Shown here piece by piece: positions 4,984 through 61,860 of a stretch of DNA of 64,000 nucleotides. Below the pieces are notes generated by a model. That model worked only from the letters and a program-made list of their open reading frames with translations, was not told where the DNA came from and searched no databases. This DNA comes from Oscillospiraceae bacterium (lineage in GTDB: Bacteria; Bacillota; Clostridia; Oscillospirales; Ruminococcaceae): assembly GCA_017555565.1 (NCBI GenBank), contig JAFZGF010000061.1, positions 14,431 through 78,430 of the forward strand, written 5' to 3'. Position 1 is the stretch's first letter. Every line of letters starts with the position of its first letter. The position numbers were made by a program, and so were the translations under genes.

Positions 4984-4993
4984 TATTGCTTAA

Positions 4994-8332: not shown

Positions 8333-8353
8333 ATATTTTCCTCTTGTTAGAGT

Positions 8354-9916: not shown

Positions 9917-9927
9917 AATGTTACCTT

Positions 9928-11793
9928 TTATAAGTTGTTTTCGTTGATAAGTTTATATATGTCTTGTATTGCCAGCACATTGTTTCTGTCAGCTTGTTTA
10001 TAGTCCACATTGCCACCTGTTATTGCGTTTTCGCGCTGTGACAACGCGTCCAGCTCATCCCACGGAATAAGGCAGGCGTGCTGGCGGCTGGCTGTATCTT
10101 TGCCCACACGGATTTTGCCGTTGCCGCAAAGGGATTTTTCTTCTATAAACTGCTGTTCCCTGGCGGCATAAACATCATCCGGCATTTTTTCATATCCCAT
10201 TGCATAATGGAAAGCCATCCAGCGCAGGTGTTCTGTAACAGCCAGGTTTTCCAGCTGTGTGTCGGTCAGTGCCCACTGCTGTGCAGGGTTTTGGCCGGCT
10301 ATCAGAGCCATTGATGGCATAAAGTCAGCAGAAGCACGGCTGGACATACGGCTGAACCAGTCACACACCGCCCAGTTTTCCTGCGGCGTTTTGTCGTTTT
10401 TGCAATATCTGTTGTTCAGCGTGGTCGCCATATAATCTATTTTTCCGGTGCACAGTACATCGGTGGAAAATACAGGATACTGTTTTGGCGGAATGTTGCC
10501 GTCTGTCAGGCAGGTTATACCGCTGTAATCTGCCAGATAAACCTGGGCATCACTGCCTATTCTGGCGAGATAGCGGGTGATTTCTCCGCCGATTTCGTTG
10601 TTTGTTTTGTCACTGCCTGTGCAGATAACGATATAGTTCATATCGTCTTTTCTGGCCAGGATATAGTCGTACATACTGCGGCTGCGGCCGTCATAATCAT
10701 AGAATTTTATATTGTAGTTGTCTGTAAGGGAGCGGCAGGTGGCAGAGATATATCCGCTTACCTGCTCAAAATCCGGTGCAAAAACCGCCAGTGAAAATTC
10801 ACTGTCTTTAAACTGCCCATTCATAACCAGCTGTTTCATAACAGCCTGGCCCACCTGGCCAAAGCCGATCAGAACAGCTTCAAAATTTTCTGCAGCTGTG
10901 CAGTCTGTGGCAAAATCCATAGTTGCGGCAGGTGGGAAATGGTGCATCAGCAAACGGGCTGTAAGGCTGGCGGCGTCAAAAACAGTCACGTTTCCAAAGC
11001 CGTATTTATCCCCCAGAGCCTGCAGTGGCTCGGTGTGTAGCTCTTCTGTCCCCAGCATAACAAGATTTGTCTGGTTTGCAGGTATATGGGCTGTTTCCAG
11101 GGCATCTTTCAAAGCAAAGGCATATTTTATGTTTTTTGCCTCGTTTTTATGTAAAAGATAAAAATCATATTTTCTGTTTTTGCCCCTTATACCCAGACTG
11201 CGCAAAAAGCGTCTGTCAGGCCAGAGGGCGTTTTTGTCTTGTATTACAACACCGCCAAAAGAATTTATGGCGTTTTCCAGAGTAGAGGTCGCCTTATCGT
11301 CAACAAATACCAAATTGTTTTTGTTGTTTTCAGTCAGCTGTCGGCCAAAAGAAACGCTGTCCTCATTGATGCAGTAAATCAGCGAAAGATTGCCAAAGCA
11401 GGCCAGCCACAGACGCATACGGCGCAAAGCGCGGGTGCCGATAGCTGCAATGGCGGCGCTGGCGGTAGCGTACTGAGCCATAAAATGCACAGCCCAGAAA
11501 TACAGCACAGCGGCTTTTGATGCAAACAGCGGAGTACTGCTTACAATGGCAAAATCATTTTTGGAAACAAACATCCCCCACACAGCCATAACGCTGCGCA
11601 GAATTGCCAGGGGTGGGTTGTCAGCAAAGGCTATACCATAACCATAGCTGTATATAAACAGTCCGGAGATACCTGCCCAGGCAATGCAGAATCCCGTTAT
11701 CTTTGCGGAATTTTCCTTCTTCATTGCCAGATTAAGAATTATAGCCAGAAAAAGCACACCTGTAAAAAGTGCCACCATTGTAATACCAAACAT
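9928..11793 (-). CDS. Polytopic membrane protein with Rossmann (TrkA-N/RCK-like) domain and C-terminal RyR domain
   Basis: The N-terminal ~130 aa are hydrophobic helices with no K+ filter. A GxGxxG motif is present (VLIGFGQVGQAV). The C-terminal TEHLRWMAFHYAMGY...RQHACLIPWDELD is RyR-domain-like. There is an 11-nt gap to the K+ channel gene. Confidence 0.75.
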   Translation of the reverse strand: MFGITMVALFTGVLFLAIILNLAMKKENSAKITGFCIAWAGISGLFIYSYGYGIAFADNPPLAILRSVMAVWGMFVSKNDFAIVSSTPLFASKAAVLYFWAVHFMAQYATASAAIAAIGTRALRRMRLWLACFGNLSLIYCINEDSVSFGRQLTENNKNNLVFVDDKATSTLENAINSFGGVVIQDKNALWPDRRFLRSLGIRGKNRKYDFYLLHKNEAKNIKYAFALKDALETAHIPANQTNLVMLGTEELHTEPLQALGDKYGFGNVTVFDAASLTARLLMHHFPPAATMDFATDCTAAENFEAVLIGFGQVGQAVMKQLVMNGQFKDSEFSLAVFAPDFEQVSGYISATCRSLTDNYNIKFYDYDGRSRSMYDYILARKDDMNYIVICTGSDKTNNEIGGEITRYLARIGSDAQVYLADYSGITCLTDGNIPPKQYPVFSTDVLCTGKIDYMATTLNNRYCKNDKTPQENWAVCDWFSRMSSRASADFMPSMALIAGQNPAQQWALTDTQLENLAVTEHLRWMAFHYAMGYEKMPDDVYAAREQQFIEEKSLCGNGKIRVGKDTASRQHACLIPWDELDALSQRENAITGGNVDYKQADRNNVLAIQDIYKLINENNL

Positions 11794-33127: not shown

Positions 33128-34270
33128 TCAATATTTTAGTCTCTCCATAATTATAGTTTTAAGTCTACTGTTCATAGATATAGATTTAATAGCAATTTCC
33201 AAATTTTGTGCATAGAAGTAATTAAAACTCATATTATTTCTCAAGTGTTTCGGAAATGTAATTGAAAACATGATTCCTGTAGTTATAGTTGCTGCCCAAT
33301 CATTTAATGGAACTGTAAACTTTATCTTATTTATTGAAATATTATCAAGAACCTTTGATATTAACTTCATATCCCATTCACTACACTCAAGCCAAGGTTC
33401 TTCTTTTATGTAATGAAAAATCATTTTGTCATATGCATGACGAACAACACTCACTATATTGTCCGCAATTTGCAGCAAATCATTATCTTTACTGTCTTCA
33501 AACTTTATGTCAATCGAATAATTTTTTAGTTCTTTTCGCATTGTATCAGAAAATTCTTTGATATTGTCGTGAATATACTCAATATCCGAATTAGATTGAT
33601 TATTATCCACTTTTATAAAAGTGATTAATTCTGCCAACGCATTCATATTAATCAAATTTGTAATCTGTGGGTTATCATACCATCCAAATGTCATAAAATC
33701 TTGATAACATTTATCCGTTATATTTTCATCAAGTATTTTATTGGCCATAATTTTAGCAGCATTTTCTGGCAATTCTTCAGAATATTCGTAATTGATCAAA
33801 AAATTTAGATAGTCTATAAATTCTGTTTGACCCAAATTTTGTATATACTTTAAATATTGGACAAAAAAATCATCTTTTTGCTTAGATAAAAATGAAGCTT
33901 GGACATAGAAATGCTCTGGTATAGTCTCTTGATATTCAATACCATACAAAGATAGCAAAAGCATTGTGGATATATAAAATTTTTTATCATATAAGATGAT
34001 ATAAAAATGCTTATTATCAAAAATATGCTTTAGCATGTAGTTCAGTTCTGCATTCCTTTTTCGCACTAAAAGATCACTACCTTTTATTTCTCCTGATATT
34101 TTATATTTTCTTTTAAATGCTTGATACTTTTCTATCAATATTTTCTCGTCTTTTTCATTATTAACAACTACAGCTGCCAAAGCAAAAGTCGGTTGTGTTT
34201 GGAAATTCAGTAAATCATCTTTTTGCAACACACATCCACTTTGTCCAGATTCATCAAAATATATTTTCAT
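33128..34270 (-). CDS. DUF3800-family protein
   Basis: It starts MKIYFDESGQSG (the DUF3800 N-terminal hydrophobic-DESG motif) and carries the C-terminal LLQIADNIVSV motif (lQ.AD.ia). ATGA overlap with the upstream gene. Confidence 0.65.
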   Translation of the reverse strand: MKIYFDESGQSGCVLQKDDLLNFQTQPTFALAAVVVNNEKDEKILIEKYQAFKRKYKISGEIKGSDLLVRKRNAELNYMLKHIFDNKHFYIILYDKKFYISTMLLLSLYGIEYQETIPEHFYVQASFLSKQKDDFFVQYLKYIQNLGQTEFIDYLNFLINYEYSEELPENAAKIMANKILDENITDKCYQDFMTFGWYDNPQITNLINMNALAELITFIKVDNNQSNSDIEYIHDNIKEFSDTMRKELKNYSIDIKFEDSKDNDLLQIADNIVSVVRHAYDKMIFHYIKEEPWLECSEWDMKLISKVLDNISINKIKFTVPLNDWAATITTGIMFSITFPKHLRNNMSFNYFYAQNLEIAIKSISMNSRLKTIIMERLKY

Positions 34271-35655
34271 AATACGCCTTTATCTATAATAGATTTTCCT
34301 TGGGTTTCACTCAAAAGTTTCCAACCATTATGTGTATTTAATTCTTCTGCAATAGCATCTCGTCTATCAATTCCTAACGAAAGACAAATATGATATTCCA
34401 AAAGAACACGCAAAATATAAATAGCCTCCAAGAGTTCCTCTCCTTTTAAAGCTTTTGCCTCCTTAGATTTTCCGTAATGTGTATAGTAATGTCTTGTATC
34501 GGCAATTGTTTGTGCATATTCTTCATTTTCAATATAATATTCACAAAACAAGCCGTCGTTTTTCCCTATTAACAAATCGTTTAATCGCGATACTAGAATA
34601 ATAAAATTACAATTTTTATCCATCTGGGTTTCATTTAAAAGCAATTTATTATATCGCTCTGAATCTCCAAAACGACTCTTAACTGAGTCAACATATTTAT
34701 CCTTTTTATTACCATAGAAAAACCTCGAATGAAAAGTTTCTAAAGCCTGTACAATATTCAAAAAAACCATTTCATGTGGCATATCCTTATATTTGAATAG
34801 CGATAAGTAAAGATTAAAAACAGGTGTTAATTTTTCCAATTTATCATTTATATCTGCTTCTTCAGGTAAATCTTTAAGACTAAAATTGTAATGCCATCTT
34901 TGAATTTTTAATACATCAAGATTAGCTCCTGAAGTATATAAATAATGTTTATGATAATCTTCATATTTATTTGCTATTAAATATACATCATCGTAATCGT
35001 ACAAATATTGTTCTTCAATATTTACATTATTTTTTATAGCAAAAGAAATAAGAGACATAATCTTATCTCTTATAGAAACCAATTCTTTTACGCTACTTTT
35101 TTCAATAGTTTCTATTTCAAGTACAAGACGCTGTACAATCTTGGTTTCCTCTTCTGTAGGCAAAACAAATAGCGGATTATTTACATAGCTAGAAAATGTT
35201 ATTTTTGCTCCAAACCAATTATATGTTTTTTTGTCTATACTATTCTTGGCTTTAATGCCGTCTTCCGTTTCTTCAAATGTAGAAAAACCACTCCACGGAT
35301 ATGCATTTTTTAGAGTACATACCATTTTATTATATGATGAATCAATTCTTTCAGAGTTCGACCATACCATATAGTCTGAAATAAAAATAAGTCGTTGATT
35401 ACTAAAGGCATAGGTATGATTTTTACTGCATTTATTATTAAAAAGAGTTACTACTGCACCTGAATTCAATTTACCAATTATATATGGTAATGTACCATAA
35501 CTTTTTCCAAAAAATGACTCTGAAGAAACTTCTTTTACAAGATTTAAAAGGATTACACCTTTTTGTTTGTTGTAAATCAATTCTCCAGTTATGTGTTCAT
35601 TTAAAACTTGAAACACCCCGGTATAATGTCTGTCAACATCAATATTTTCCCACAT
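34267..35655 (-). CDS. HEPN-motif protein, ApeA-like architecture
   Basis: 462 aa. The C-terminal helical region carries an Rx4H HEPN motif (ADTRHYYTHYGKS), followed by amphipathic helices (LEAIYILRVLLEYHICLSLG). The large N-terminal domain is of unknown fold. Size and layout resemble ApeA (HEPN abortive-infection protein). Confidence 0.5.
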   Translation of the reverse strand: MWENIDVDRHYTGVFQVLNEHITGELIYNKQKGVILLNLVKEVSSESFFGKSYGTLPYIIGKLNSGAVVTLFNNKCSKNHTYAFSNQRLIFISDYMVWSNSERIDSSYNKMVCTLKNAYPWSGFSTFEETEDGIKAKNSIDKKTYNWFGAKITFSSYVNNPLFVLPTEEETKIVQRLVLEIETIEKSSVKELVSIRDKIMSLISFAIKNNVNIEEQYLYDYDDVYLIANKYEDYHKHYLYTSGANLDVLKIQRWHYNFSLKDLPEEADINDKLEKLTPVFNLYLSLFKYKDMPHEMVFLNIVQALETFHSRFFYGNKKDKYVDSVKSRFGDSERYNKLLLNETQMDKNCNFIILVSRLNDLLIGKNDGLFCEYYIENEEYAQTIADTRHYYTHYGKSKEAKALKGEELLEAIYILRVLLEYHICLSLGIDRRDAIAEELNTHNGWKLLSETQGKSIIDKGVL

Positions 35656-36462: not shown

Positions 36463-36825
36463 ATGACAACTACTACATATTTCGCAACACAGCATAGCAT
36501 CGACAGAGCAATGGAAAGAATCAACCTCAATGAACGAGAAGCGATGAGGAAAATAGATATAGCATTGCAGCGTGGCAAATGCGCAGAAAATTACACATCT
36601 TCCAGAGAACGTAAATACCTTGAAAATCAAAGTCATAACGCCATAGCAGTAGCATTTGATAACTTCTGTTATCTTTTCAGTTACCAGGGAGAATGCATCA
36701 CAGTATATGCCCTTCCAGATTGGTGGGAAAGAAAGAAAATGTACAACGGCAAAGAAAAAATCCGCAGGCCTAAAAAATACTTTAGTTTCTATAATGAAGA
36801 AATGGAGGCACGCATTTATGCTTGA
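36463..36825 (+). CDS. Hypothetical small protein (120 aa)
   Basis: An aaggag RBS lies 8 nt before the ATG at 36463. I prefer this start over the listed upstream start at 36388, which lacks an RBS. No recognisable domain. Confidence 0.5.
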   Translation: MTTTTYFATQHSIDRAMERINLNEREAMRKIDIALQRGKCAENYTSSRERKYLENQSHNAIAVAFDNFCYLFSYQGECITVYALPDWWERKKMYNGKEKIRRPKKYFSFYNEEMEARIYA

Positions 36826-36964
36826 CTTCTTGGCTTTGATTATTTTAGGGGTTTTTATCCTTCCTTTTAAAGGCATAAGTATGATAATGGATGGAAACTA
36901 TAGTGCCGGTATACCAACTATGTTGTTTGGTTTCGCCCTATGGACAGTATTTTTCAACTGGTGA
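36818..36964 (+). CDS. Hypothetical 48-aa two-TM peptide
   Basis: An internal Met of the listed ORF 36656..36964 overlaps the stop of the preceding gene by 8 nt. The product MLDFLALIILGVFILPFKG...TMLFGFALWTVFFNW has two hydrophobic helices. Confidence 0.35.
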   Translation: MLDFLALIILGVFILPFKGISMIMDGNYSAGIPTMLFGFALWTVFFNW

Positions 36965-37057
36965 GAAATAGCAGGCAGATATCTTTTATCTGCCTGTATT
37001 TATTTATAAAACAATATCTGCTATAATTTTAATATATTTATCCTTTCTGGAGGACAT

Positions 37058-38182
37058 ATGAAAAGCTACACATCACAACAAGAAGATAAAATCTGGGGCC
37101 TGCCAATATACCCAGATATGTATGAAACTGATTATGAAACCATATCTTCGTTCATAAATACAACCTTTCGTTCTTTCGGTGAAAGTTTGGCTGCAGTTAT
37201 AAACAAAAAAGCCGGTAAAGTGATTGATGAACCTAAAAAGTACATAGAAGAAACATGTAAAGCTGCAAATATTGATATAAGTGAAATTGCTTCCAGAAAT
37301 ACATTCAAAAACTGGTTTTCAGCCGGAATGCGTCCTAAAAAAAGTGAATCATCCAGAAAATCTATGTTTGTACTCGCATTTGCTTTAGGTTTATCAGTAG
37401 AAGAAACTGAAGAATTATTCAGCAAAGCTTATTTAGACAGGGCATTCAATCACAGAGACTATAAGGAACTGATTTACTATTACTGTATAAACAGAGGTAT
37501 GCCATATTCTCATGCAAAACGCCTTATAGAAATGGTTAATATCGATGATTCCAACCCAACAGATGCCACAGTGTATACTATAATGATTAAATCTGATGTA
37601 GATACTATATCTGAAGACGGCGAATTACTGAAATACATTGAAAATCACAGGCACAATCTTTCTTTAAATAATAAACGGGCTTTAGAATTACTAGAAACTT
37701 ATAAAGAAAAATCATATCCTTTTGTTGAATCAAAAGATGGTATGCATGATAAATCTGCAAAATCCTTATTTGAAGCAATAACAGGACAAGAAGTAAAAGG
37801 TAAAAAAGGAACTACAACTCTTAAATTTAAAGATCGTTCCCTTCCCGATGAAATAAGAATCAATTTCCCTCAGGTGCATAACCTAACAGATAAGGAGCAG
37901 TCTTATGAGGAATTGAGAAAGACTCTTATCCTTGTATTTTCCTATTGGTTCTGGAGTAATCTTGCTGCTAACAATTATGAGTATATAGACAAAGACAACA
38001 AGCTTGCAGATGCTTTCGATGGCTATAAGGATGAATTAAATATGGTTCTTCTCGAAGCTAACATGCCGCTTTTATATTTAGGTAACCCATATGACTGGAT
38101 GTTCGCTTACTGCACCTATACAGAAGATCCGCTATACACATTTCAAGGTATAATGGACGTTGTATTTGGTTCTGAAGAGTAG
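37058..38182 (+). CDS. Hypothetical protein with possible N-terminal HTH-like segment
   Basis: ggagga RBS. The segment ISEIASRNTFKNWFSAGMRPKKSESSRKSMFVLAFALGLSVEETEELF resembles an XRE-like HTH. The rest is uncharacterised. It lies directly upstream of the kinase-STAND gene. Confidence 0.55.
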   Translation: MKSYTSQQEDKIWGLPIYPDMYETDYETISSFINTTFRSFGESLAAVINKKAGKVIDEPKKYIEETCKAANIDISEIASRNTFKNWFSAGMRPKKSESSRKSMFVLAFALGLSVEETEELFSKAYLDRAFNHRDYKELIYYYCINRGMPYSHAKRLIEMVNIDDSNPTDATVYTIMIKSDVDTISEDGELLKYIENHRHNLSLNNKRALELLETYKEKSYPFVESKDGMHDKSAKSLFEAITGQEVKGKKGTTTLKFKDRSLPDEIRINFPQVHNLTDKEQSYEELRKTLILVFSYWFWSNLAANNYEYIDKDNKLADAFDGYKDELNMVLLEANMPLLYLGNPYDWMFAYCTYTEDPLYTFQGIMDVVFGSEE

Positions 38183-38257
38183 ATGTCAATCAAAGTTACA
38201 TATAACACATCCATACACATTAGAATAAAATCACAATAAAAACAAGTGAGGAAACTA

Positions 38258-41200
38258 ATGAGAAAAAAATTAGAAATCGGCCAGCAGATAACCCTTATCT
38301 GTGACGGCACTGAAAAACAATTTACAATCAAAAAGCTTATTGGTGACGGTGCAACCTGCATTGCATATGAAGCCAGCCGTATAAACTCAAATGGCATGAC
38401 CGAACATTATCGCATCAAGGAATGCTATCCATACGATGCTGATATTTCAAGAAATGAACTTGAATTGATATGGGTAGATGAAGCTGAAAAGAAGAAATAC
38501 TTTGAAAGATTCAAATCTTCATACCAGATAACCAACCAGCTCAAATATGAAGAAACCATAGGCAACAACATAACTAACGCTATGCTTTGCGAAGGCAATG
38601 GCACAGTGTATTCGGTTATGGAAATTAACCATGCAAATGTATACAGTAATATAAAAGAAACAAGCCTTGAAAAAATATTGGATACAATACTCGTTCTTAC
38701 AAAAGTTGTTGGCAACCTTCATAAAAATGGATATTTACATCTTGATATAAAGCCAGATAATTTTCTTGTAAGTTATGAACCGAATACAAATATATGGTTA
38801 TTTGACGTAGATTCTTTAACATCTATTGCCGAACTGAAAGCTGGAAGTATTAAAAGCACACCATATTCTTTCAGCTATGCAGCTCCGGAGCAGAAATTCA
38901 ATGAGATATCAAAAATAAACTTTTCAACAGACATCTTCGCTATTGGTGCTGTTTTGTTTGAAAGAATTATGCATACTTGTATTTCTGTTGATGATATGAG
39001 TGTGTTTGCTGATTGGAACCTGGATAACAACAGTTTGTTTGACGATATCAATCCAAAAATAAAACGTTTAATTAAAAATATCTTCAGAAAAACTTTGGCA
39101 GTATCCCCTAAAAGAAGATATAAGACTACCGATGAACTTGTTGCTGCTATTGAATTGGCATTGAAAACTGTACAAGAAAAACTGTTCATTGTTTCCAATA
39201 TACCTGCCAATGCTGCACATTTTATAGGTCGTGAAACAGAACTTGCCGCCATTCACAATGAGTTTAAGTCAGGTCAGAAAGCTGTTTTCATCCATGGTTT
39301 TGGTGGTATGGGTAAAAGCTCATTGGCTGTTGCCTATGCCAACAAACATAAAGATGATTATGATACGGCAATCTTTTTGAAATATAAAGATTCCATTAAA
39401 GAACTTATAACTGAAATCAACATCCAGAACTATGAAGGTTTAGAATTCGATAAAAATAAGGTTCTGCATAAGTTGCTGGATAAAAACACCTTACTCATTA
39501 TTGATAATTTTGATGTTGAGATTGACCAGGATGAGTATCTTGATGAATTATTACAGTTAAATACAAATATTCTTTTCACCTCTCGTACTGATTTTTCTTC
39601 TGTTTATGGAGAAGATGTCACACAGATTGATATTTCAAAACTGGCAGACAATGAATTAATTAAACTGTTTAGAAATATTTCTTGTGATAATTCCTCAAGT
39701 GACAAAGATATCGTAGAGCTATTAAGCTTGGTAGAAGGACATACATATGCCGTTGAACTCCTCGCTCTGCAAATGGCTGCATCTGGTTGCTCTTTGAAAG
39801 AGTTATATAGTAAAATTGCTAATGGACTTGACGAACTTTATGGTTTTGAGAAAGTCAGAACCAGAAAAGATGGACGTATAGTTAAGAGGACAATCCCTGA
39901 AATCATTCGTGCGCTTTTTAATGTAGCCAAGCTTAATGAAGAGAGAAAGCAAGTTTTAAGAAATTTATATCTACTTAAATTTTTGTATGTGGATAAAGAT
40001 ACCTACCGCAAATATACAAAAGCAACTACAACTGAAATAAATGCATTGAATGACTTAACTGAATTAGGATGGGTAAGAACAACTAATAATCATTGGTACT
40101 CTTTACACCCTCTTGTTGAAGAACTTGTAAGCAATGATTTACACCCATCTATGGAAAACTGTGAATCTATTTATAACTATATCCAGCATGAAATAAGGAT
40201 GTGTGAATGTTTTGATATTTATTCAGAGTTAGATGAACACTCATATAACAATTCTATTTCGTTCCTTTGCACATTTTTCAACAATATCGACCTGCATGAG
40301 AAAAACAATAGAAATATACTCATAAATTGGTTGTTACAGACAATTAGAGATTATGATGATGAAAATAGTGAACTGTGTATTGGACGTAGCGAAGATAGTG
40401 TTTATACTCCTTTATACAGAAAAATTGAATTGCTTACTCAAACTATTGATTTAGAACCGATAGAGAAATTCAATATCTACTACATTCTGCTGTATTCTTG
40501 GCTGTTGGAATTTCAAATTACATATTTAGATATTGAACAGCAAAATCATCTTAACGAACTTCGTGAAAACAAACTTAAAAAGTATTTTAACCTTTCTATT
40601 TCTGTAATACAGCAATGTGATAATTCTATTACCGAGGAACTTTTAGATAAAGTTTATAGCAGCATTCTCTTTATCGCCGGCAGTATGATAATGCCATCTT
40701 TTCCAAAAGAATTCATAGTTAATCTTTATTTAGAAAGACCTCATACATGGCAACTGGGTTTAATAGCTAAAAACAGACTAGGCTTACCATTATCTGTTGA
40801 AGAACAAAAAGAAATAGATGACGTTAATGCAAATCTCCCTGATGTTTTTAAAGAAGGGTATACGGATGAAGACATTGAAGCTGAAAAAGAATTTAAATCA
40901 GCATTTTTAATGTCCAAAGATAAAGTGCAGTTTGTAAGAGAACTATCAGAGGACAGCGAATGTGCTCCTGTTACAAGAGCAAGTTTAATTGGCGATTGTA
41001 AAGAAGCTTTCTTTGGTGATTTTCAATTCTATCGTTGGTTTCTTAGTTTTTCCGATGAAGACTGGAAAACGATTCAAGATATTTTAAATATCGAAGAGTC
41101 ATTATTATTCTCTGATACTTATGAACAATCAGAATTCTACAATATTCATGATCATAATGACTTGATTTCTCAAAACAGCGTAGAACAATGCGTTGTAAGC

Positions 41201-41623
41201 GTAATGAGACAGCAATATGACATTTTTGAGAACATTATTAATAATATTTTAATATACATAAAGATTGAACTTACTGATTATGTGAATGCTGATTGGCATT
41301 GGTCTAGGATAATAGACCTCAATAATTGGCAAAGAATACATTATCGCCTTATTCGAAGCTTTATAAATATTAATAAAGCCAGTTTTATTCTCCCTTATAT
41401 TTTAAAGATTAATTCTGGCTTTTACGAATATGCCAAACTACAATCTGATTTTGATGAAAAACTGTTCTTTAATAACTACAAACTCATTTCTGAGCTTGCA
41501 CAAAGTGCGTATTTCGAGAAAAATGTGCCAGAAAAATATAAATTGGAATATATGGATATTGAGGTCGAATATGAGTGCAAGATGGATGAATTGTCCGAAA
41601 AAAATTTCATATTAAAAGTTTAA
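38258..41623 (+). CDS. Ser/Thr protein kinase domain fused to a STAND (NB-ARC/AAA16-like) NTPase and a ~650-aa helical C-terminal region
   Basis: Kinase motifs: GDGATCIAYEA (G-loop), HYRIKEC (catalytic Lys), YLHLDIKPDNFLV (HxDxKPxN catalytic loop), LFDVDS (DFG-like), YAAPEQ (APE). NTPase motifs: FIGRETELAAI..., Walker A FIHGFGGMGKSSLA, Walker B LLIIDNFD. The start is set at ATG 38258 (gagga RBS 6 nt upstream) rather than the listed GTG 38246. Confidence 0.8.
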   Translation: MRKKLEIGQQITLICDGTEKQFTIKKLIGDGATCIAYEASRINSNGMTEHYRIKECYPYDADISRNELELIWVDEAEKKKYFERFKSSYQITNQLKYEETIGNNITNAMLCEGNGTVYSVMEINHANVYSNIKETSLEKILDTILVLTKVVGNLHKNGYLHLDIKPDNFLVSYEPNTNIWLFDVDSLTSIAELKAGSIKSTPYSFSYAAPEQKFNEISKINFSTDIFAIGAVLFERIMHTCISVDDMSVFADWNLDNNSLFDDINPKIKRLIKNIFRKTLAVSPKRRYKTTDELVAAIELALKTVQEKLFIVSNIPANAAHFIGRETELAAIHNEFKSGQKAVFIHGFGGMGKSSLAVAYANKHKDDYDTAIFLKYKDSIKELITEINIQNYEGLEFDKNKVLHKLLDKNTLLIIDNFDVEIDQDEYLDELLQLNTNILFTSRTDFSSVYGEDVTQIDISKLADNELIKLFRNISCDNSSSDKDIVELLSLVEGHTYAVELLALQMAASGCSLKELYSKIANGLDELYGFEKVRTRKDGRIVKRTIPEIIRALFNVAKLNEERKQVLRNLYLLKFLYVDKDTYRKYTKATTTEINALNDLTELGWVRTTNNHWYSLHPLVEELVSNDLHPSMENCESIYNYIQHEIRMCECFDIYSELDEHSYNNSISFLCTFFNNIDLHEKNNRNILINWLLQTIRDYDDENSELCIGRSEDSVYTPLYRKIELLTQTIDLEPIEKFNIYYILLYSWLLEFQITYLDIEQQNHLNELRENKLKKYFNLSISVIQQCDNSITEELLDKVYSSILFIAGSMIMPSFPKEFIVNLYLERPHTWQLGLIAKNRLGLPLSVEEQKEIDDVNANLPDVFKEGYTDEDIEAEKEFKSAFLMSKDKVQFVRELSEDSECAPVTRASLIGDCKEAFFGDFQFYRWFLSFSDEDWKTIQDILNIEESLLFSDTYEQSEFYNIHDHNDLISQNSVEQCVVSVMRQQYDIFENIINNILIYIKIELTDYVNADWHWSRIIDLNNWQRIHYRLIRSFININKASFILPYILKINSGFYEYAKLQSDFDEKLFFNNYKLISELAQSAYFEKNVPEKYKLEYMDIEVEYECKMDELSEKNFILKV

Positions 41624-41628
41624 CTTAT

Positions 41629-41653
41629 GAGCCACTTTATCGTGGCTCTTTTT
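41629..41653 (+). terminator. Terminator after the kinase-STAND gene
   Basis: gagccac-tttatc-gtggctc followed by ttttt. Confidence 0.75.
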
Positions 41654-41763
41654 CGTTGTCAACGAAAGCTACATTTTCAATTACCCTACTATCTATAATA
41701 AACTCAAGTTCCATACTTGCTATAAACTTATGAACCAGACACAAATCAACGGAGAATTATTAT

Positions 41764-42081
41764 ATGATAAGAAAACTATTTAAATTCTTAGGAAACGCCC
41801 TAATATCTCTTTACACAACATTTTACGACATTATAGACTCCATCTTTACTGGGTTTGAACCAGATAACACAAGTGATATCCACTTACGTTCAGACATTTT
41901 TTCTTCAAATATCGTTGGAAATGAAATTTTTAAGGTATTAAAACCTATGTTAGCAGTGACCTTAACAGGAATATATCTGGCTATAATGATAAAGCTATGT
42001 GGTGTAATAATTTCTGGAATGTACACCCGTGGATATTTTTCAATGCTTCGGGAATTTATTATGGAATTCTTCAAAAGATAA
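41764..42081 (+). CDS. Hypothetical small membrane protein (105 aa)
   Basis: ggaga RBS. One clear TM helix (MLAVTLTGIYLAIMIKLCGVIISGM). No recognisable domain. Confidence 0.4.
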   Translation: MIRKLFKFLGNALISLYTTFYDIIDSIFTGFEPDNTSDIHLRSDIFSSNIVGNEIFKVLKPMLAVTLTGIYLAIMIKLCGVIISGMYTRGYFSMLREFIMEFFKR

Positions 42082-42254: not shown

Positions 42255-45200
42255 TTATAGATTATAAATACTTTTTTCAGAAATGTCGGAAAATAAAATC
42301 GTTTTCTGATTTTTATGATAATATTCATTACTTATTACGGGTTCGCTTAGAATAAGGATGTCGTCAACTTTCCAATTCTTTTTTGATAACTTGTAATGTT
42401 CTATAACATCATTTAGATGAGACTTTATCCAATCAACTCTGCGTTTGTGCTTGGATATGTAACATAATTTATTACCATTGTCACAAAAAACATTTAAATA
42501 TTGTTGATGCATTTCATAAGGAGACTTGGAGAAAGAAAAATCTTTGACCTCTCCTACGATTATTTTTCTTCTTCTAGTATCGATTATTAAAACATCAATA
42601 TCCCCTAATGTGTTCCTGTTTGCATCGGCAATCATCTTACCATTAATTTTTTTAACTTTTTCAGTAACGATAAGTCCCTTTATTGTATTGAGTTTTTCGG
42701 CGACAGCTGAATTAAACAGATTTCCACGACTGTTTGATAGTTTACTAATTACCTGCTTAAGCGCTGCACTTTCAGCTTTTAGTTTTCCGTCTTTGATTAA
42801 ATCATATGTAAACATCAAACAATGAAATAATTGCCTATTGCCCCAAACGATGTCTTCGTCAACCATAATAAGTGGCCTTCTAGTGAATGATAATCGCCTG
42901 TTAAATCTCCAAGGCCAAATATCGGTGTTTTTGTATCCTTTTGGAGCAGGTAAATATTCTGGTCGTTCCTTTAACGATAAGTCGTTAATTATTTTGCTGA
43001 TTTTAGATCTTTCAATTCCTGTTTTTTCAAAAATGGTTTCTAGTAACTTTGTAATATTTATTCTGCATATTTCGGATTTAATATCTTCACCGATAACGAG
43101 TAAAGAAGTCACTACTTTTGAAAAATCACCATATGAATATCCATATTCTGCAATGAAAGCGCTATTGAGATCGTCAAAATCAATATTATCATTGCCGAAA
43201 TGATACTTACTAATATGTGGATTGGAGTACTGGGTTAGTCTTTTTATCGCTGCGGAATAAGTGGACTCTGTTAGTTCGATCGGTTGTGTATTATTTATTC
43301 CTACTCGACCGGATTTTAAGATGTTCATTTCACTATCAATAATATTATAGTTAAATAAATCTCCTATCTGTGCCCAGTGAATTATTGCAGAACAAATAGT
43401 TAATATATTTTCATATTCTAATTCACCTAATAATACATTCCCTTTAGGAGGTTGAGCTGATACATACTCCATGAAGAATTTTAATGCAATAGATGATTTA
43501 TTTAATTGATTGTAAGTCGAATTTAATTTGTCAGTTTTTTCGGGATAACATGCAATATTAAAAGCATGTCTTCTTTGCGTAAGCATCATTGAGTACATAA
43601 CCTTCTCTAAATCAAGATATATTTGTTCTATTAAATTTTGTGGATTTAGAGATGCAACTAAAGTTTTTAATTTTTTGTACAAATAATCAACGATAGTTGA
43701 GCATATGGAATATTTTTCATTTTTCTTAATTTCCCCGAAAGGAACCCCTTTTTCTTTAATTAAGAAGTATCCTATTTCATCAGATAGTAGCTGTTCATAT
43801 TCAATAGACACTTTTCTAAAATCTAAATCAATTGGTTTTAGATATGGGTACTCTTGAGCGTTTAGAAAAAAAGCTTTCTTTTTCAGAGGGTTTTCAAAAA
43901 GCTTATCCACTTTATGCATGGATAACGCCTTTGTAGAGAAACATGATATGGATTCTAAAAGGAGAGTAGTTATTGCTTTTTCTTGAGAATTATTTTCGTT
44001 GCTAAATTTGAAATAAGCTTCTGGAGTCCATATAAAAGTTATAATATTGTCTAGAATTTGGATTTTTAATAAATCCTCTAAGGCACTTTCACTATAAGAT
44101 TCTGAAGAAAAATACTGCGTTAAATTACCAGTTAGTTTATGTTCAATTACTATTGAATTATTGTGAAAACTATTTCCTGTAATTATATTTTTGCATTCGG
44201 CAATCCAGTACGAACACATATCAGTAACAGTATGATAGATATCTGATGCTATTGTTGTAGACGTAGAGTCGATTAATTGCCATATGTCTATATTTGAAAA
44301 CTTGTTTAATATATATATGGTTTCTTTATTATGACTCATGTATATATTTCTAGCAGAGTCCAACCGTATCATTTCTAATAAGTATGGAGCATTTGGACAA
44401 TCAGCTAAAAATTTATTTTCACTAATTATTGCTTTGTTAAAGTAATCAATAGCATTGTCAAAACCTAAATAAAATATATCTTTCCTATAATCGAAATTAT
44501 CGTCTAAGTAAAAAGAATATCTATCACAGTAAACTGAAATGTTATAAATATCGCCATAAAGTGTAAAAGGTTCAAGCATATTATACTTGCAATCCATATA
44601 TCGTGGTATAAAGTTTCTATGGGAATGTTCATTTACAGCAATGCAATAGAGGTCAAAGGGAGATAATAATAACTGCCTAAAACTCTGTTTGATTATTGTC
44701 TTATATTGAGTGACTCTACTAAACGAACAGGAAATACAAATTTGATATATTCTATCTTGTGGATAACCTTTTAACTTTTCTTGTATGTAGGCCCACCTTT
44801 TTCCGATTTGAAAATTATTGATTTTTATCAATTCGTGCATATTTTCAAAATTATATTTATTTCCTGAATCACAGAAAAATTGTACAAACAATAAACCATT
44901 ATTCACGACATTTAACAAAACCTCTTTATATGAATCTGTACTTATCAAATCTATTTCTAGTGGTTCTACGACTATTTTTTTGTGGTCTAACTTTTTGAAC
45001 GATTCAAGGCATTGTTGAAAAATATATTCGTTATATGCTTTTATTACATCATCAAAGCAACCATACTCAGCAGCTTTTTTTAAAATATAGTTTATTAAAA
45101 ATGAGCCTAATTCTGAAGGATTTAAAACGAATAAAGTGCTTTCGCTTATTCTTAGAAAAGGTTTGTAATAAAAACGGAAATTTTCTGGATTATTAGTATG

Positions 45201-45875
45201 ATTAAACTGATTCTCTCCAAATTCTGAAATTAATTTTTCTAATTCCTCACTTTGGATAAATCTTTTAAGGAAATCAATATCAACACTTAAAGCTTGTTGT
45301 GCTTTTTTTATGTTTTGGGTGTTGGGATAGTCAATATCAGTTTTTTCGTAGTGTCCTAAAATTTGACGATCATAATGTAAATCTGCACATATTTTTGTGG
45401 AGATGGTCAAAATAGTGTGGGTTATTAGACTTGAATCGTTAATGAAATCTTGATTAAAACCATTTCCATTTTTAAATAGAATGTCTAATAAACCCTGCAA
45501 TCTATAGCCAATATCTTTGTTAATGCCAGAAAAAATCCAATGATTTCCATAAAATAGTATGCGATGGATAAATGGCATCTCAGGTGGATCAATATTCTTG
45601 GCGATAGGGAAACTCATAGAGTAATTGACAATATTTTGGAATTTGTTATTACTGATTTTGGCAGTACCAGAAAAATATGATTTTGGTTTTTCTAAAATAG
45701 AAGCGATTAAAGTATCGAAAACCAATGCTTTATTCTGATTATTAGGAAATAAATAAAGTGCAGATATTTTATTTAAAAAGTCGATGATATCATATTTTTT
45801 CAACTCGGTTGTAATTGAATTAGCGATATCATTTTTGGATGGTTTTTCTAATAATGATGGTAAGTTCTTTTTCAT
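42255..45875 (-). CDS. Large (1206 aa) uncharacterised protein with C-terminal PD-(D/E)xK nuclease motif
   Basis: No P-loop was seen anywhere. The C-terminal segment is ...NSAVAEKL...NTLGDIDVLIIDTRRRKIIVGEVKDFSFSK, i.e. the E...D...E-x-K arrangement of restriction-endonuclease-fold (NERD/Shedu/Mrr-like) domains. The preceding ~1000 aa have no recognisable motif. Confidence 0.65.
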   Translation of the reverse strand: MKKNLPSLLEKPSKNDIANSITTELKKYDIIDFLNKISALYLFPNNQNKALVFDTLIASILEKPKSYFSGTAKISNNKFQNIVNYSMSFPIAKNIDPPEMPFIHRILFYGNHWIFSGINKDIGYRLQGLLDILFKNGNGFNQDFINDSSLITHTILTISTKICADLHYDRQILGHYEKTDIDYPNTQNIKKAQQALSVDIDFLKRFIQSEELEKLISEFGENQFNHTNNPENFRFYYKPFLRISESTLFVLNPSELGSFLINYILKKAAEYGCFDDVIKAYNEYIFQQCLESFKKLDHKKIVVEPLEIDLISTDSYKEVLLNVVNNGLLFVQFFCDSGNKYNFENMHELIKINNFQIGKRWAYIQEKLKGYPQDRIYQICISCSFSRVTQYKTIIKQSFRQLLLSPFDLYCIAVNEHSHRNFIPRYMDCKYNMLEPFTLYGDIYNISVYCDRYSFYLDDNFDYRKDIFYLGFDNAIDYFNKAIISENKFLADCPNAPYLLEMIRLDSARNIYMSHNKETIYILNKFSNIDIWQLIDSTSTTIASDIYHTVTDMCSYWIAECKNIITGNSFHNNSIVIEHKLTGNLTQYFSSESYSESALEDLLKIQILDNIITFIWTPEAYFKFSNENNSQEKAITTLLLESISCFSTKALSMHKVDKLFENPLKKKAFFLNAQEYPYLKPIDLDFRKVSIEYEQLLSDEIGYFLIKEKGVPFGEIKKNEKYSICSTIVDYLYKKLKTLVASLNPQNLIEQIYLDLEKVMYSMMLTQRRHAFNIACYPEKTDKLNSTYNQLNKSSIALKFFMEYVSAQPPKGNVLLGELEYENILTICSAIIHWAQIGDLFNYNIIDSEMNILKSGRVGINNTQPIELTESTYSAAIKRLTQYSNPHISKYHFGNDNIDFDDLNSAFIAEYGYSYGDFSKVVTSLLVIGEDIKSEICRINITKLLETIFEKTGIERSKISKIINDLSLKERPEYLPAPKGYKNTDIWPWRFNRRLSFTRRPLIMVDEDIVWGNRQLFHCLMFTYDLIKDGKLKAESAALKQVISKLSNSRGNLFNSAVAEKLNTIKGLIVTEKVKKINGKMIADANRNTLGDIDVLIIDTRRRKIIVGEVKDFSFSKSPYEMHQQYLNVFCDNGNKLCYISKHKRRVDWIKSHLNDVIEHYKLSKKNWKVDDILILSEPVISNEYYHKNQKTILFSDISEKSIYNL

Positions 45876-53671: not shown

Positions 53672-55168
53672 TTATAATATATTTATATTATATATGTCAT
53701 TTGTTTTTTTAAATTCAACCTCAGCCGGAAAAGGGTTCACACCTACATTTGCAAGTGCAACCATATTGAAAGACCATTCTTTCAGCTCATCTGGAAGCAA
53801 ATAACACACCGGTGTATCGTTCTCCATAATTGTTATACACGCTTTTTCGAAGTTACCAAAGAAACCAACATTTAATACAGCATATACCACTGCTTCATCT
53901 TTAATAGGTAACATTCCATGTTTACTATAATCAATATAGCATTTAGCGCCCTTTTGATTGTAATATGTGCCATCTTCTGGTATTTTCGTTGCATCAATTT
54001 TAATTTTATTTCTCATTCTTTCAAATTCGTGCTGTAGTGTTGAAACAGCCATACTATTCAACCGGATCTGATGTTTTTCGCCACTGATTTTTCTAAAATC
54101 ATTAATGTTTTCAAAAGAATCAAAGTAATGCAAAATACAGATAAGATAAATTAAATTATCAGAGTATTTACCACTATAGATTTTATCCCATACTTTATGC
54201 TGGTCAATAATTACAGTTTTCAACTTTTTATATAGCCGTAAATGTTCTGATCTAATAGTGAACCAATCCTTTTTAATAAACTGGAGTTTTTTCGTGTCTT
54301 CTGTGCTGCCATATTCAAGAGAATTCGATATTGATTTTAAAAGTGAAGAAGTTATTCCAGCAATAAAATCTGCAATTCTAAGGCCTACATATTCATCTGA
54401 TTTGCCTTCTTCACAATTTTCAAGTCCTTCGGATTTTGACGCAGCTAAAGTTTTGCCTGCACCTTCTTTATCGATAACCAAATGATAATCATTTACATCT
54501 AATTCACTCATGTACTTTTTGAAGCCTTGAAATGCGATAGAATAGTTCCAGTCGAGCACAAAATCGCTTGAATATTCATTTAAAATTATGAGTGCTTGTT
54601 CAATCGCTTGATTTTCCAATGGTCGCTTATCTTCTTTTTCGTTATCTTTATATACTTTTCCTAAAAAGATTTTAAGCTCATCAATAAAGGAATTATCGTT
54701 TCGATATACGGCATCATATACATTTTCAGGGCGGTATAATGCTACTAATTTTGATATAGAATATCGCAGATTATCAGCATCAATAATTAAAGAGTTTCTG
54801 TAATTACTTAACAACTGAAGAATTAAATATTCAAATTTATTAAACACACTTATGTATATAAAAAGCTTATTATCTATTACAATATCCAACAAATCATTTA
54901 CAAGGTTTAAATCATTCTTTTTGAAAGAAGCAAACCCAGATTTGTACTTCTTTTTTGTTATATTGGTGCTTTTAAGTTCATCTTTTACTGTAAAAAGCTT
55001 TTTATATATTTCGTCAAATTTCAAATACTGCTGCTCTATTTCCTCACGAATTTCATTAGGATATCCTACAATACAAGCGACAAAATTTTCAGAAAAATTT
55101 TCTGCTGTTATAGTGTTTTTGGTTAGTGTTCTGCTATGTTCCGATTCATCATAAAAGAAAGTGTGCAT
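53672..55168 (-). CDS. DUF3800-family protein (second copy in window)
   Basis: It starts MHTFFYDESEHS (hydrophobic-DES motif) and carries LRIADFIAGITSS (the Q/R-IAD-x-IAG motif). GGAGG RBS. It starts 24 nt after the upstream gene. Confidence 0.65.
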   Translation of the reverse strand: MHTFFYDESEHSRTLTKNTITAENFSENFVACIVGYPNEIREEIEQQYLKFDEIYKKLFTVKDELKSTNITKKKYKSGFASFKKNDLNLVNDLLDIVIDNKLFIYISVFNKFEYLILQLLSNYRNSLIIDADNLRYSISKLVALYRPENVYDAVYRNDNSFIDELKIFLGKVYKDNEKEDKRPLENQAIEQALIILNEYSSDFVLDWNYSIAFQGFKKYMSELDVNDYHLVIDKEGAGKTLAASKSEGLENCEEGKSDEYVGLRIADFIAGITSSLLKSISNSLEYGSTEDTKKLQFIKKDWFTIRSEHLRLYKKLKTVIIDQHKVWDKIYSGKYSDNLIYLICILHYFDSFENINDFRKISGEKHQIRLNSMAVSTLQHEFERMRNKIKIDATKIPEDGTYYNQKGAKCYIDYSKHGMLPIKDEAVVYAVLNVGFFGNFEKACITIMENDTPVCYLLPDELKEWSFNMVALANVGVNPFPAEVEFKKTNDIYNINIL

Positions 55169-60867: not shown

Positions 60868-61860
60868 TCATATTTTTACTTTTTCAATTAATTCTCGCAT
60901 ATTTTTTCTAACGGATTCTGGAGATAGTATTTCAACATCTCCCATACCAATTATCCATCCTAAAAATATATTAGACGGCACCGCTATAAAATTCACAATT
61001 AAATATTCTTCGTTTTCTTTTTCTATTTCTATATCTATCCCGAACTGATCGATAAACGCACCCGCAAGATGTTTTTTTATTCTAACAGTTATTTCTTTTT
61101 CATCTCCAGAAAACATTTCTTTGCGTCTTGAAACATATGTGCTAGCATCAAAGTTTTTGAACTCTTTTCGCCCATCTCGACGCATAGCATCAATAATACG
61201 AATATTTTTTAATTTATCTACCCTGTAACATCTCTCTTCGACTTTTCCATTAGAATTCTTATATCCATATAAATAATATCTATCATTGGCCAAAATAAAT
61301 GCCCACGGACTAAATACTCTTAAATCATCTCCATTCTTTACAAGACGTTTATTTTCATTCCATTGAAGATATTCAAAACTAATTTGTTTATCTTGTCGTA
61401 TAGCATCTTGGATTGTATCAATATTTCTCAAAATACTTTCATTATTTGCCTTTGCGACGTTTACTCCAAAAACTGTGCGATCTAATTCATCTTGTTCATA
61501 TATACTTATAATACTTTTCAAATTTTCTATAAGTTCTTTGGATTTCTGCGGTGTAATAAAGTTAGTTGCATTTATCAAATCCACAAGAATTTTCATTTCT
61601 GTTTTTCTGATAATCCTATCGTTATCGCTGATAGAATATCCCGCATAACGCCCTCTAGAATAAATCACTTCTATACCTAATTCCCGGTTTATCTCATCAA
61701 TATAACTATGTATAGTTTGCTGACTACATTTATGTCCCGACTCTTCCATTTTTCGCAAAATTTCAGACATAGACAAGCTATGTTCCTCATCAGTTTGTTC
61801 CATTAATATTTTCAAAAGAGCGAGGATGTTGCTTTTCGTAATATTATTTGATGAAGTCAT
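60868..61860 (-). CDS. HTH + WYL domain transcriptional regulator (BrxR/CapW-like)
   Basis: N-terminal wHTH (ILALLKILMEQTDEEHSLSMSEILRKMEESGHKCSQQTIHSYIDEI). The central WYL-domain segment is RVFSPWAFILANDRYYLYGY, followed by a C-terminal WCX-like region. GGAGG RBS. Confidence 0.8.
   Translation of the reverse strand: MTSSNNITKSNILALLKILMEQTDEEHSLSMSEILRKMEESGHKCSQQTIHSYIDEINRELGIEVIYSRGRYAGYSISDNDRIIRKTEMKILVDLINATNFITPQKSKELIENLKSIISIYEQDELDRTVFGVNVAKANNESILRNIDTIQDAIRQDKQISFEYLQWNENKRLVKNGDDLRVFSPWAFILANDRYYLYGYKNSNGKVEERCYRVDKLKNIRIIDAMRRDGRKEFKNFDASTYVSRRKEMFSGDEKEITVRIKKHLAGAFIDQFGIDIEIEKENEEYLIVNFIAVPSNIFLGWIIGMGDVEILSPESVRKNMRELIEKVKI

Follow-up and report, generated by a model that had tools for sequence, protein, structure and literature searches.

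A kinase-bearing STAND protein and its conserved partner form a two-gene operon and a candidate immune module in gut Clostridia

Introduction

Characterized bacterial defence proteins of the STAND/NLR type (signal transduction ATPases with numerous domains/nucleotide-binding leucine-rich repeat receptors) kill or arrest the cell directly, acting as nucleases, NADases, proteases or pores. Could a protein kinase serve as the output of such a protein, and which of the genes around it would then belong to the system? Both questions are raised by a 1121-amino-acid (aa) protein encoded in a 64,000-nucleotide stretch of DNA from an Oscillospiraceae bacterium (contig JAFZGF010000061.1, positions 14,431 to 78,430; this whole stretch is called the window hereafter), in which a Ser/Thr kinase domain is fused to a STAND nucleoside triphosphatase (NTPase). 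An earlier note on this DNA had proposed a defence module of five genes, with the kinase as effector.

The analysis presented here leads to a smaller system. The functional unit is an operon of two genes rather than five, located at positions 37019–41656 and composed of the kinase-STAND gene and of the gene preceding it, which encodes a 374-aa protein, referred to as P374. This protein is an obligate and conserved partner of kinase-NB-ARC genes. We estimate at about 0.5 the probability that the two genes constitute a self-contained, horizontally mobile NLR-like immune module, whose output would be phosphorylation and in which P374 would be a substrate, an adaptor or a regulator.

Organization of the operon

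Region 36463–42081 of the window contains five open reading frames (ORFs), all on the + strand, as are the signals described below, and all at the positions given by the earlier note. P374 is encoded at 37058..38182. The kinase-STAND gene starts at ATG 38258, with an AGGA ribosome-binding site 8 nt 5' of it, and ends at 41623; a GTG at 38246 was considered as an alternative start and rejected, as it falls within the AGGA site itself. Within this gene, the kinase domain (aa 1–310) spans 38258..39187, and the STAND NTPase module (aa 311 to about 640), which comprises nucleotide-binding, helical and winged-helix domains, spans 39188..40177. The all-helical C-terminal region, the presumed sensor (aa ~641–1121), occupies 40178..41623, stop codon included.

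The boundaries of the operon are marked on both sides. Upstream, a terminator-like hairpin with an 11-bp stem (36971–36997; feature span 36971..37007) lies between a 48-aa ORF and P374. Next come an extended -10 promoter-like element, TGCTATAAT (37019..37027), read directly from the sequence, and a GGAGG ribosome-binding site (at about 37049–37053) 5' of the P374 gene. The whole noncoding block, from this terminator through the -10 element, is 100% identical in a related locus (L001) in which the flanking proteins are only 65–69% identical. Downstream, an intrinsic-terminator-like hairpin (41629–41648) and its T-run (together 41629..41656) begin 6 nt past the stop codon of the kinase-STAND gene. 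It is the hairpin and -10 element on one side and the second terminator on the other that delimit a two-gene operon. The earlier note had recognized the terminator after the kinase gene but had taken it for the only one. Given these two terminators and the comparison of related loci, the five-gene unit shrinks to two genes: P374 and the kinase-STAND gene are conserved together, whereas the 120-aa, 48-aa and 105-aa ORFs around them are not.

Linkage of the kinase-STAND gene and P374

The 1121-aa protein has 455 homologues at an expect value (E) of 1e-3 or below, most of them full-length (1100–1400 aa), and it thus belongs to a family that is real and sizeable, far beyond chance. On six out of six metagenome contigs retrieved via the kinase, a P374 homologue is encoded immediately upstream, with 38–67% identity and many invariant residues. 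A search of the genomes of 185,579 species with the P374 alignment yielded 74 loci. Three of them (L033, L075 and L076) are cut by a contig end and were left out as uninformative; in the other 71, without exception, P374 has a kinase+NTPase ORF beside it, as established by scanning every ORF with profiles. The two genes are either co-directional, as in the window, or divergent with facing 5' ends, and the linkage holds down to 23% identity. Divergent order is seen in about one third of the loci, and in four loci the kinase gene lies 2.6–4 kb from P374. Among contigs of IMG/VR, the two that bear P374 also bear the kinase gene.

In a reverse test, which started from the kinase-STAND alignment, an intact P374 was present in 9 of 11 intact, informative metagenome loci. 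Decayed P374 fragments were found in L099 (4687–6215) and in L103 (3508–6972), and in the latter both genes have decayed together; this decay is consistent with a joint loss of the two genes.

The kinase domain

The kinase had been described in the earlier note as apparently active, a description that its relatives uphold. In the family alignment (48 sequences with 31–95% identity to the window protein), the motifs GDGATCIAY, RIKE, HLDIKPDN, AAPE, GFGGMGKSS and LLIIDNFD, which include all of those quoted in that note, are invariant or nearly so. The invariant kinase positions are G29xG31, K54, H161-L-D163-x-K165-P-x-N168, F182-D183 (at the DFG position), A209-P-E211, D225 (the alpha-F Asp) and R287. 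In Pfam, Pkinase (PF00069) matches residues 87–294 with an E of 1.5e-11 and 44.7 bits (cutoff 31.7). The domain is predicted to be an active Hanks-type Ser/Thr kinase, and the invariance of both its motifs and those of the NTPase at 31–95% identity suggests selection on enzyme activity.

The profiles that best match the kinase are those of defence kinases: PD-T4-6 from PADLOC comes first (E 1e-18), followed by MkoA and mad6, and NCBIfam yields MAD6. These PADLOC and NCBIfam matches span residues ~23–320 only, and the NCBIfam scores are far under the family cut-offs. The nearest sequences in the PDB, as found by phmmer, are the bacterial Ser/Thr kinases 4eqm (PknB-type, from Staphylococcus aureus) and 9ymt (E 9e-9).

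The NTPase module

Residues 340–493 match NB-ARC (PF00931) in Pfam with an E of 4e-7 and 30 bits (cutoff 23.5); AAA_16, nSTAND1 and AAA_22 match the module more weakly. Across the 48 sequences, the invariant positions are G324-R325, the Walker A residues G347..G350xG352-K353, the Walker B residues I414xD416-N417xD419, R443-T444 and H617. The TSRT motif, which carries the sensor-1 arginine, is invariant, and H617, within LHPLVEE, sits at the MHD position of the winged helix. An AlphaFold2 (AF2) model of residues 311–1121, built on the same 48 sequences, has a mean predicted local distance difference test score (pLDDT) of 89.3 and a predicted template modelling score (pTM) of 0.82. It consists of a P-loop alpha/beta domain, a helical domain and a winged-helix domain, followed by ~480 helical residues.

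The earlier note had asked whether the NTPase groups with MalT/PknK-type regulators. Here, the ranking of Foldseek and phmmer matches was used as a proxy for a phylogeny, and it places the module nearer to CED-4, Apaf-1 and plant NLRs than to MalT. In the Foldseek comparison with the PDB, the archaeal STAND-TPR (tetratricopeptide repeat) protein PH0952 (6mfv) scores 3.6e-10, CED-4 1e-8, Apaf-1 2e-7 and the plant NLR resistosomes 1e-7 to 1e-5, all with a probability of 1.00. The defence proteins Avs3 and Avs5 score 1.5e-6 and 6.5e-6, respectively. MalT (8bob) ranks only 29th (E 1.4e-5), below the NB-ARC proteins. With phmmer against PDB sequences, the only matches are NB-ARC domains of plant NLRs, namely Roq1 (1e-4) and MLA13. 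On this ranking, the NTPase is a STAND of the NB-ARC/AP-ATPase type and not of the MalT type.

The features shared with CED-4, Apaf-1, plant NLRs and PH0952 include the P-loop, a hhhhD Walker B, a TTR-like sensor 1 (TSR/TTR) and the winged-helix histidine (LHP). By contrast, the identity to these proteins is only 13–16%, the second acidic residue of Walker B is replaced by Asn, the effector and the sensor are different, and the host is a bacterium.

The C-terminal region

The remainder of the window protein consists entirely of helices, modelled with high confidence by AF2, and yielded no match in Pfam and PHROG scans. The earlier note was right about its helical nature, but its estimate of ~650 aa was too high, since ~480 aa follow the winged helix. 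Pfam, AF2 and Foldseek agree on the overall design that it had put forward, a kinase joined to an NB-ARC-type STAND and to a variable helical C-terminus.

The variability is pronounced. Column conservation in the alignment of 48 sequences is 0.33–0.43 in the C-terminal region vs 0.5–0.7 in the N-terminal part. A profile of the C-terminal region recognizes close relatives only, and protein lengths range from 900 to 1575 aa across the loci. In distant members, the C-termini comprise 250–900 residues and are either unalignable or made of TPR_12/TPR_10 repeats. Pairwise comparisons with the window protein show mosaics of identity. In the relative P0008, identity amounts to 84% for the kinase domain, 37% for the NTPase and 19% for the C-terminus, and the partner protein is 92% identical to P374. 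For P0002 the corresponding values are 69%, 79% and 59%, with a partner at 65–67%, and for P0001 they are 99%, 85% and 99%, the partner not having been compared. These values indicate that the C-terminal region, presumably sensor-like, is swapped while the kinase domain and the partner stay conserved. Physical linkage between P374 and the 5' part of the kinase gene would explain the mosaic identities just as well as coevolution of the two. L004/L005 and L097 contain tandem copies. The tripartite layout, with a C-terminus that varies from one relative to the next, is that of NLR/Avs proteins.

Properties of P374

A word-indexed search gave 403 homologues of P374, every one of them named 'hypothetical' and devoid of a Pfam domain. 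An exhaustive search with a hidden Markov model (HMM) extended the family to 1506 clusters at 50% identity, of which 865 have an E of 1e-10 or below. It retrieved no fusion protein: the top matches are all stand-alone proteins of 120–588 aa, most of about 370–440 aa, so that a clue to function from fusions is lacking. Neither Pfam, PADLOC, NCBIfam nor PHROGs gave a significant match to P374, and its profile matched no PDB sequence. An AF2 model built on 65 sequences (pLDDT 82, pTM 0.73) is all-helical, with ~20 helices, and in Foldseek it has no match below E 2 in the PDB or below E 0.3 in BFVD.

The earlier note was right to single out the 374-aa gene as a partner, but the helix-turn-helix (HTH) label that it attached to the protein is backed by weak signals. 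In P374 itself, HTH_48 has an E of 0.008, below the Pfam threshold. The same sub-threshold match (residues ~103–137) recurs in 27 of 65 family members, with a best E of 8e-4, and a Pfam scan of 30 distant members found no HTH. In hhalign, residues ~72–116 match an XRE alignment with a probability of 58% (E 1e-4), a weak match to a small alignment of 9 sequences, 4 of which were Pfam-annotated proteins from the loci and 5 were of other origin. A few non-significant local matches in Foldseek are to XRE or immunity-repressor proteins. An XRE-like HTH may thus be present at residues ~37–125; the assignment is plausible from these comparisons and only weakly supported.

P374 is more conserved than the kinase-STAND protein, with a mean column identity of 58% vs 41%. 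Its conserved core, defined on 77 distinct sequences, comprises R100, T174, S233, F270-P271, R287-K288, G342-N-P-x-D346-W347 and P358. The conserved Thr and Ser residues may serve as phospho-acceptors, with T174, S233 and T252 as candidates, or act as mere helix caps. Judged by library scans, the model and the conserved residues, P374 lacks transmembrane segments and bears no signature recognizable as that of a nuclease, a pore-forming protein or an NADase.

Genomic context and distribution

The operon lies in a region of the window with a distinct composition. At about 30 kb, just past a lacZ/MFS/AraC sugar locus, the GC content drops from ~0.40–0.45 to ~0.29–0.34 (about 0.42 to 0.30). Judged by its composition and gene content, the 3' half of the window (30000–64000) is a horizontally acquired defence island, and in this respect the setting described by the earlier note is confirmed. 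Besides the pair, it carries genes for a Schlafen-AlbA2 ATPase, a DUF3800 protein with ApeA (PDC-S58), an Upx-like protein, GmrSD with DUF4357, NOV_C and AAA_14. It also contains two methyltransferase genes (D12 and Eco57I-type) with no obvious nuclease, a second DUF3800 gene with a ResIII helicase, and a gene for a WYL-WCX regulator.

Elsewhere, the neighbours of the pair include a Type I restriction-modification system (L006), AbiH and an integrative element (L007), IS21 and PemK (L009), and GmrSD (L087). In L001 and L172, they are Macro, MrpR-recombinase and ADP-ribosylglycohydrolase genes. In 22 distant loci, PADLOC models matched by neighbours include mREase_II, JetC, PDC-S03, PDC-M69, BnzB, mad2/3/8, AriA and AbiLi. 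The neighbours in these loci span 138 Pfam families, the commonest being phage integrase (4), AAA-ATPase_like/PDDEXK_9 (3) and NERD (3), so that no conserved target operon emerges. The association of the pair with mobile elements and defence genes, as read from these neighbourhoods, is moderate.

Gut or rumen Clostridia and other Bacillota account for nearly all hosts, and a few Bacteroidaceae bins are found besides. For the window itself, a Bacteroidetes origin was considered and rejected, since a SpaA-type pilin and the taxonomic affiliation of homologues point to a Gram-positive host among the Clostridia. Hosts of the pair include Ruminococcus, Acutalibacteraceae, Lachnospiraceae, Clostridium tertium, Intestinibacter bartlettii, Selenomonadaceae and Catenibacterium. 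The locations are sporadic and often near integrases or defence genes. Phage and plasmid databases gave one weak phage match and one plasmid match. The latter is megaplasmid pRUMAL01 of the cultured type strain Ruminococcus albus 7, which carries the pair (L175, NC_014824.1, 181489–185417) next to a PIN/Phd toxin-antitoxin pair and a BrxL-like gene. In RefSeq, the partner is annotated as 'hypothetical protein' (WP_013483441.1) and the 904-aa kinase-NB-ARC protein as 'NB-ARC domain-containing protein' (WP_013483440.1), a name that misses the kinase domain.

Relation to known systems

The closest parallels in design are the Avs proteins (Avs1–5, and Avs7–21 of Lee et al. 2026, PMC13581612) and bNACHT, which likewise combine an N-terminal output domain, a STAND NTPase and a variable helical or TPR-like sensor. 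Location in defence islands, swapping of sensors and the Foldseek match to Avs3 and Avs5 are further common points. The differences concern the output, which in Avs and bNACHT is a nuclease, SIR2, TIR or protease and here a Ser/Thr kinase with the obligate P374, and the NTPase, which is nearest to the NB-ARC/AP-ATPase group (CED-4, Apaf-1, plant NLR) and to no named Avs family.

A Hanks-type kinase is the active component of PD-T4-6, of Stk2 from Staphylococcus epidermidis, of MAD6 from MADS and of PglW from BREX type 2, all of which lack an NB-ARC switch and P374; the match of PglW to the present kinase is weak. The window protein does not belong to PD-T4-6, whose profile covers residues 23–320 of 1121 only and leaves ~800 further residues and a partner gene unaccounted for. 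It does not belong to the MalT/PknK type either, given the 29th rank of MalT, the lack of TPR_MalT in the window protein and the lack of a conserved neighbourhood. The pair also differs from HipBA, with no HipA (PF07804) match and a partner of 374 aa with a weak HTH signal.

PknK is a kinase-AAA-TPR protein, and kinases coupled to STAND NTPases have also been noted computationally in defence contexts. Ser/Thr/Tyr kinase effectors, mostly catalytically disrupted, were reported in NTP-dependent conflict systems of Actinobacteria and Chloroflexi (Kaur et al. 2020, PMC7159879), and Pkinase is listed among the N-terminal domains of bNACHT proteins (Kibby et al., bioRxiv 10.1101/2022.07.19.500537). 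A kinase as STAND effector, the idea put forward in the earlier note, thus has computational precedents. Pkinase-NLRs are also present in fungi (PMC12258605), and kinase effectors are not mentioned in the main text of a 2026 census of 589 STAND clades (PMC13581612). These kinase-STAND proteins, PknK included, share with the present one the coupling of a kinase to a STAND/NLR NTPase and TPR-like repeats. By contrast, their descriptions contain no P374-like partner, and the NTPase described here is NB-ARC-like, not MalT-like or NACHT. Furthermore, the kinases of Kaur et al. are mostly dead, whereas the motifs are intact in the present family, whose hosts are gut Clostridia. Full-text literature searches gave no description of a kinase-NB-ARC system with a partner or of the P374 family. 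The kinase as a STAND/NLR effector has thus already been noted, and it is the combination of an intact kinase with P374 that is probably undescribed.

Proposed mode of action and alternatives

How could such a pair work? In the immune module that we propose, a trigger, which is most probably a protein of phage origin, would bind to the variable C-terminal helical/TPR region. This would lift the autoinhibition of the NB-ARC module and allow nucleotide exchange and oligomerization, which would in turn cluster the N-terminal kinase domains and activate them by trans-autophosphorylation. The output would then be phosphorylation of P374 and/or of host proteins, not a nuclease, NADase or protease activity. 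P374 itself may be a substrate, executing or relaying the response, or else an adaptor for the presentation of host substrates; it may also be a regulator of the HTH type under phosphorylation control. The cell would finally stop growing or undergo abortive infection. We infer the trigger, the activation of the kinase by oligomerization, the phosphorylation of P374 and the anti-phage phenotype. The most specific version of this proposal, an undescribed and widespread immune pathway of gut Clostridia that runs from trigger through NB-ARC oligomerization and kinase to phosphorylation of P374, the latter representing a new all-helical fold family, is tentative, and we would expect it to fail more often than to hold.

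Several observations weigh against the proposed module. The defence role is inferred from context only, and this context is of modest strength: in the 22 distant loci, ~12 of 140 neighbour ORFs (roughly 9%) match PADLOC models, a figure that comes without a matched control, and many neighbours have housekeeping functions. The 25 PADLOC matches listed are all kinase-based (PD-T4-6, MkoA, mad6, C3a189) and include neither an Avs model nor one for another STAND defence system, and P374 has no PADLOC match at all. Two loci (L093 and L096) encode kinase-NB-ARC-TPR proteins without P374. The protein of L096 is a classical kinase-NB-ARC-TPR_12 protein whose gene adjoins a radical-SAM gene, and thus not every relative need be defensive. 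Two features of the enzyme also deviate from expectation. First, the alpha-C region of the kinase (~80–100) has no invariant Glu, so that the alpha-C glutamate is not assignable; an invariant E55 adjoins K54. Second, the Walker B motif reads DN[FY]D family-wide (39497–39508 of the window, aa 414–417); STANDs normally carry a second acidic residue at the position that is here an invariant Asn. Because of this replacement, NTP hydrolysis may be atypical, slow or absent, or D419 may be used instead. Finally, few acidic or histidine positions of P374 are invariant among the 77 sequences, and its conserved core is unlike a catalytic site; P374 is thus not enzyme-like, and any role assigned to it is guesswork.

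The alternative that survives best, which we nevertheless consider unlikely, is a signal-transduction pair comparable to PknK/VirS or to AfsK/AfsR of Streptomyces, in which the kinase protein would sense a metabolite or a stress and phosphorylate an HTH-like P374 to alter transcription. The parallel with PknK of Mycobacterium tuberculosis extends to its neighbouring regulator, VirS. The weak XRE-like signal in P374 would fit such a role, as would the divergent order of about one third of the loci, which is typical of regulators and their targets, and the P374-less kinase-NB-ARC-TPR relatives in non-defence contexts such as the radical-SAM locus. Many STAND proteins are in addition transcriptional regulators (PMC13581612; AfsR papers). 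What disfavours housekeeping regulation is the lack of a conserved neighbourhood or operon among the 138 Pfam families, the sporadic distribution tied to mobile elements and islands, and a sensor that is hypervariable and swapped, with tandem copies. Moreover, the HTH stays below every curated threshold, Foldseek finds no regulator fold for P374, and the NTPase resembles NB-ARC and not MalT.

Less probable again is a toxin-antitoxin-like addiction module, in which P374 would restrain a kinase toxin in the manner of HipB and HipA, the stabilization of the element being the primary effect and any effect on phages secondary. An HTH-like gene followed by a kinase gene does recall the order of hipBA, and HipA-like kinases have been validated in defence as toxin-antitoxin-like pairs (DS-6, PMC13092281). 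The conjugative-element-like DNA and the megaplasmid location beside PIN/Phd would also suit an addiction module. The kinase, however, is of the Hanks type and matches no HipA model, and many loci are divergent, which is unusual for toxin-antitoxin pairs. A STAND switch of 1100 aa with a variable sensor implies gating by a ligand and not antitoxin turnover. Antitoxins are typically labile, in contrast to P374, a large protein whose conservation equals that of the kinase.

The least probable reading is that the pair is defensive but uses its kinase as an integrated decoy or sensor for phage factors attacking host kinases, with P374 as the effector released or activated by the STAND. Kinase domains in the NLRs of fungi and plants have often been interpreted as integrated decoys (PMC12258605), those of actinobacterial conflict systems are mostly catalytically dead (PMC7159879) and no element of the pair is better conserved than P374, but every catalytic residue of the kinase is invariant family-wide, it is the C-terminus and not the kinase that varies, and P374 bears none of the effector signatures looked for.

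If the immune module is real, phosphorylation signalling would join the outputs of bacterial NLRs, and the pair would offer a tractable model of how NLR oligomerization activates a kinase. It would be the first STAND defence system to act by phosphorylation of a cognate partner, a prokaryotic counterpart of NOD-RIPK2 or of plant NLR/kinase pairs, and it would give a role to a large orphan family of ~1500 clusters at 50% identity. The pair is common in human and animal gut Clostridia, in which phage defence is poorly charted, and cultured R. albus 7 makes it directly testable.

Small flanking genes

The 120-aa gene (S120, 36463..36825) is often co-located with the pair but is set off from the operon by the conserved terminator. 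Its family counts 337 homologues, with a Pfam domain in none, and the protein resembles phrog_16724, a phage orthologous group of unknown function (E 7e-6 to 3e-9). Homologues adjoin the pair, upstream or downstream, in a subset of loci only. Others are found beside a module with a 1141-aa CHAT protease and no kinase, in conjugative-element DNA (L084, L085 and L089), or within a recurring string of small genes that includes ADP-ribosylglycohydrolase and MPN635_N genes. A role as a system component or as a DUF4258-like toxin was considered and rejected, given the lack of Pfam or PDB support, the presence in a subset of loci and the occurrence next to the CHAT module. It is probably a backbone gene of mobile elements that flanks a cargo slot.

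The slot marked by this family (L084, L085 and L089, positions 2546–8372; L086–L088) holds either P374 with the kinase-STAND gene or a trio composed of the 1141-aa CHAT protease and of 405-aa and 193-aa proteins, with NADAR-DarT1, TraG, Colicin-DNase and HipA nearby. The trio looks like another uncharacterized defence candidate, and the slot looks like a part of a conjugative or integrative element of Clostridia.

The earlier note had counted two small membrane peptides as satellites of the kinase, a view that the related loci do not support. The 48-aa ORF (36818..36964), which has two hydrophobic segments, overlaps the 3' end of the 120-aa gene. It is kept at the protein level in L001 (56% identity) and was called in L172, these relatives being 56–68% identical. 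L087 has a weak counterpart at best, and the ORF is absent or different in the other loci compared. From this conservation, it is a real small gene in close relatives and not a family-wide component. The 105-aa ORF (41764..42081), with one long hydrophobic stretch, lies beyond the downstream terminator and is not part of the system: it resembles none of the ORFs found downstream in six related loci and is present only in L174, which is 95% identical. Scans of Pfam, PADLOC, NCBIfam and PHROG assigned it to no family.

In some relatives, the kinase-STAND gene is followed by a gene for a Cys-rich protein of 77–88 aa with the motif CGYC..H.C..TVKQLK..ECLKKQCW (L001, 9491–9724; L006, 9459–9725; L172, 10437–10670). 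It often precedes an MrpR-type recombinase gene in these relatives and is absent from the window.

Other loci of the window

Other genes of the window deserve mention. The ApeA gene (ApeA_NTD1+HEPN_Apea; PDC-S58, E 4e-41) and the downstream DUF3800 gene, which it overlaps by 4 nt, are located at 33128–35655 on the - strand. The second DUF3800 gene (53672–55168) heads an operon with genes for an unknown 678-aa protein and a 1159-aa ResIII helicase, and the WYL-WCX regulator gene lies at 60868–61860. Based on these two operons, DUF3800 is a recurring partner in two candidate systems of one island.

The gene for the Upx-like protein (42255–45875, - strand) encodes 1206 aa, of which only the C-terminal part matches Upx (residues 901–1160 in PADLOC, 529–1177 in NCBIfam). 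With 102 bits against a cutoff of 1900 and a different N-terminal half, this protein is a divergent Upx-like sensor. Finally, a gene group on the - strand lies outside the low-GC island (4994–11793). One of its genes encodes 1112 aa, with a TIR domain at the N-terminus (TIR_2, E 1e-14; ThsB_TIR) and a beta-propeller signal that is weak, and is located directly 3' of a gene for a 520-aa protein with ion-channel (Ion_trans_2) and RyR domains and of a gene for a 621-aa protein without a family match. This group could represent a separate TIR-based defence or signalling module.

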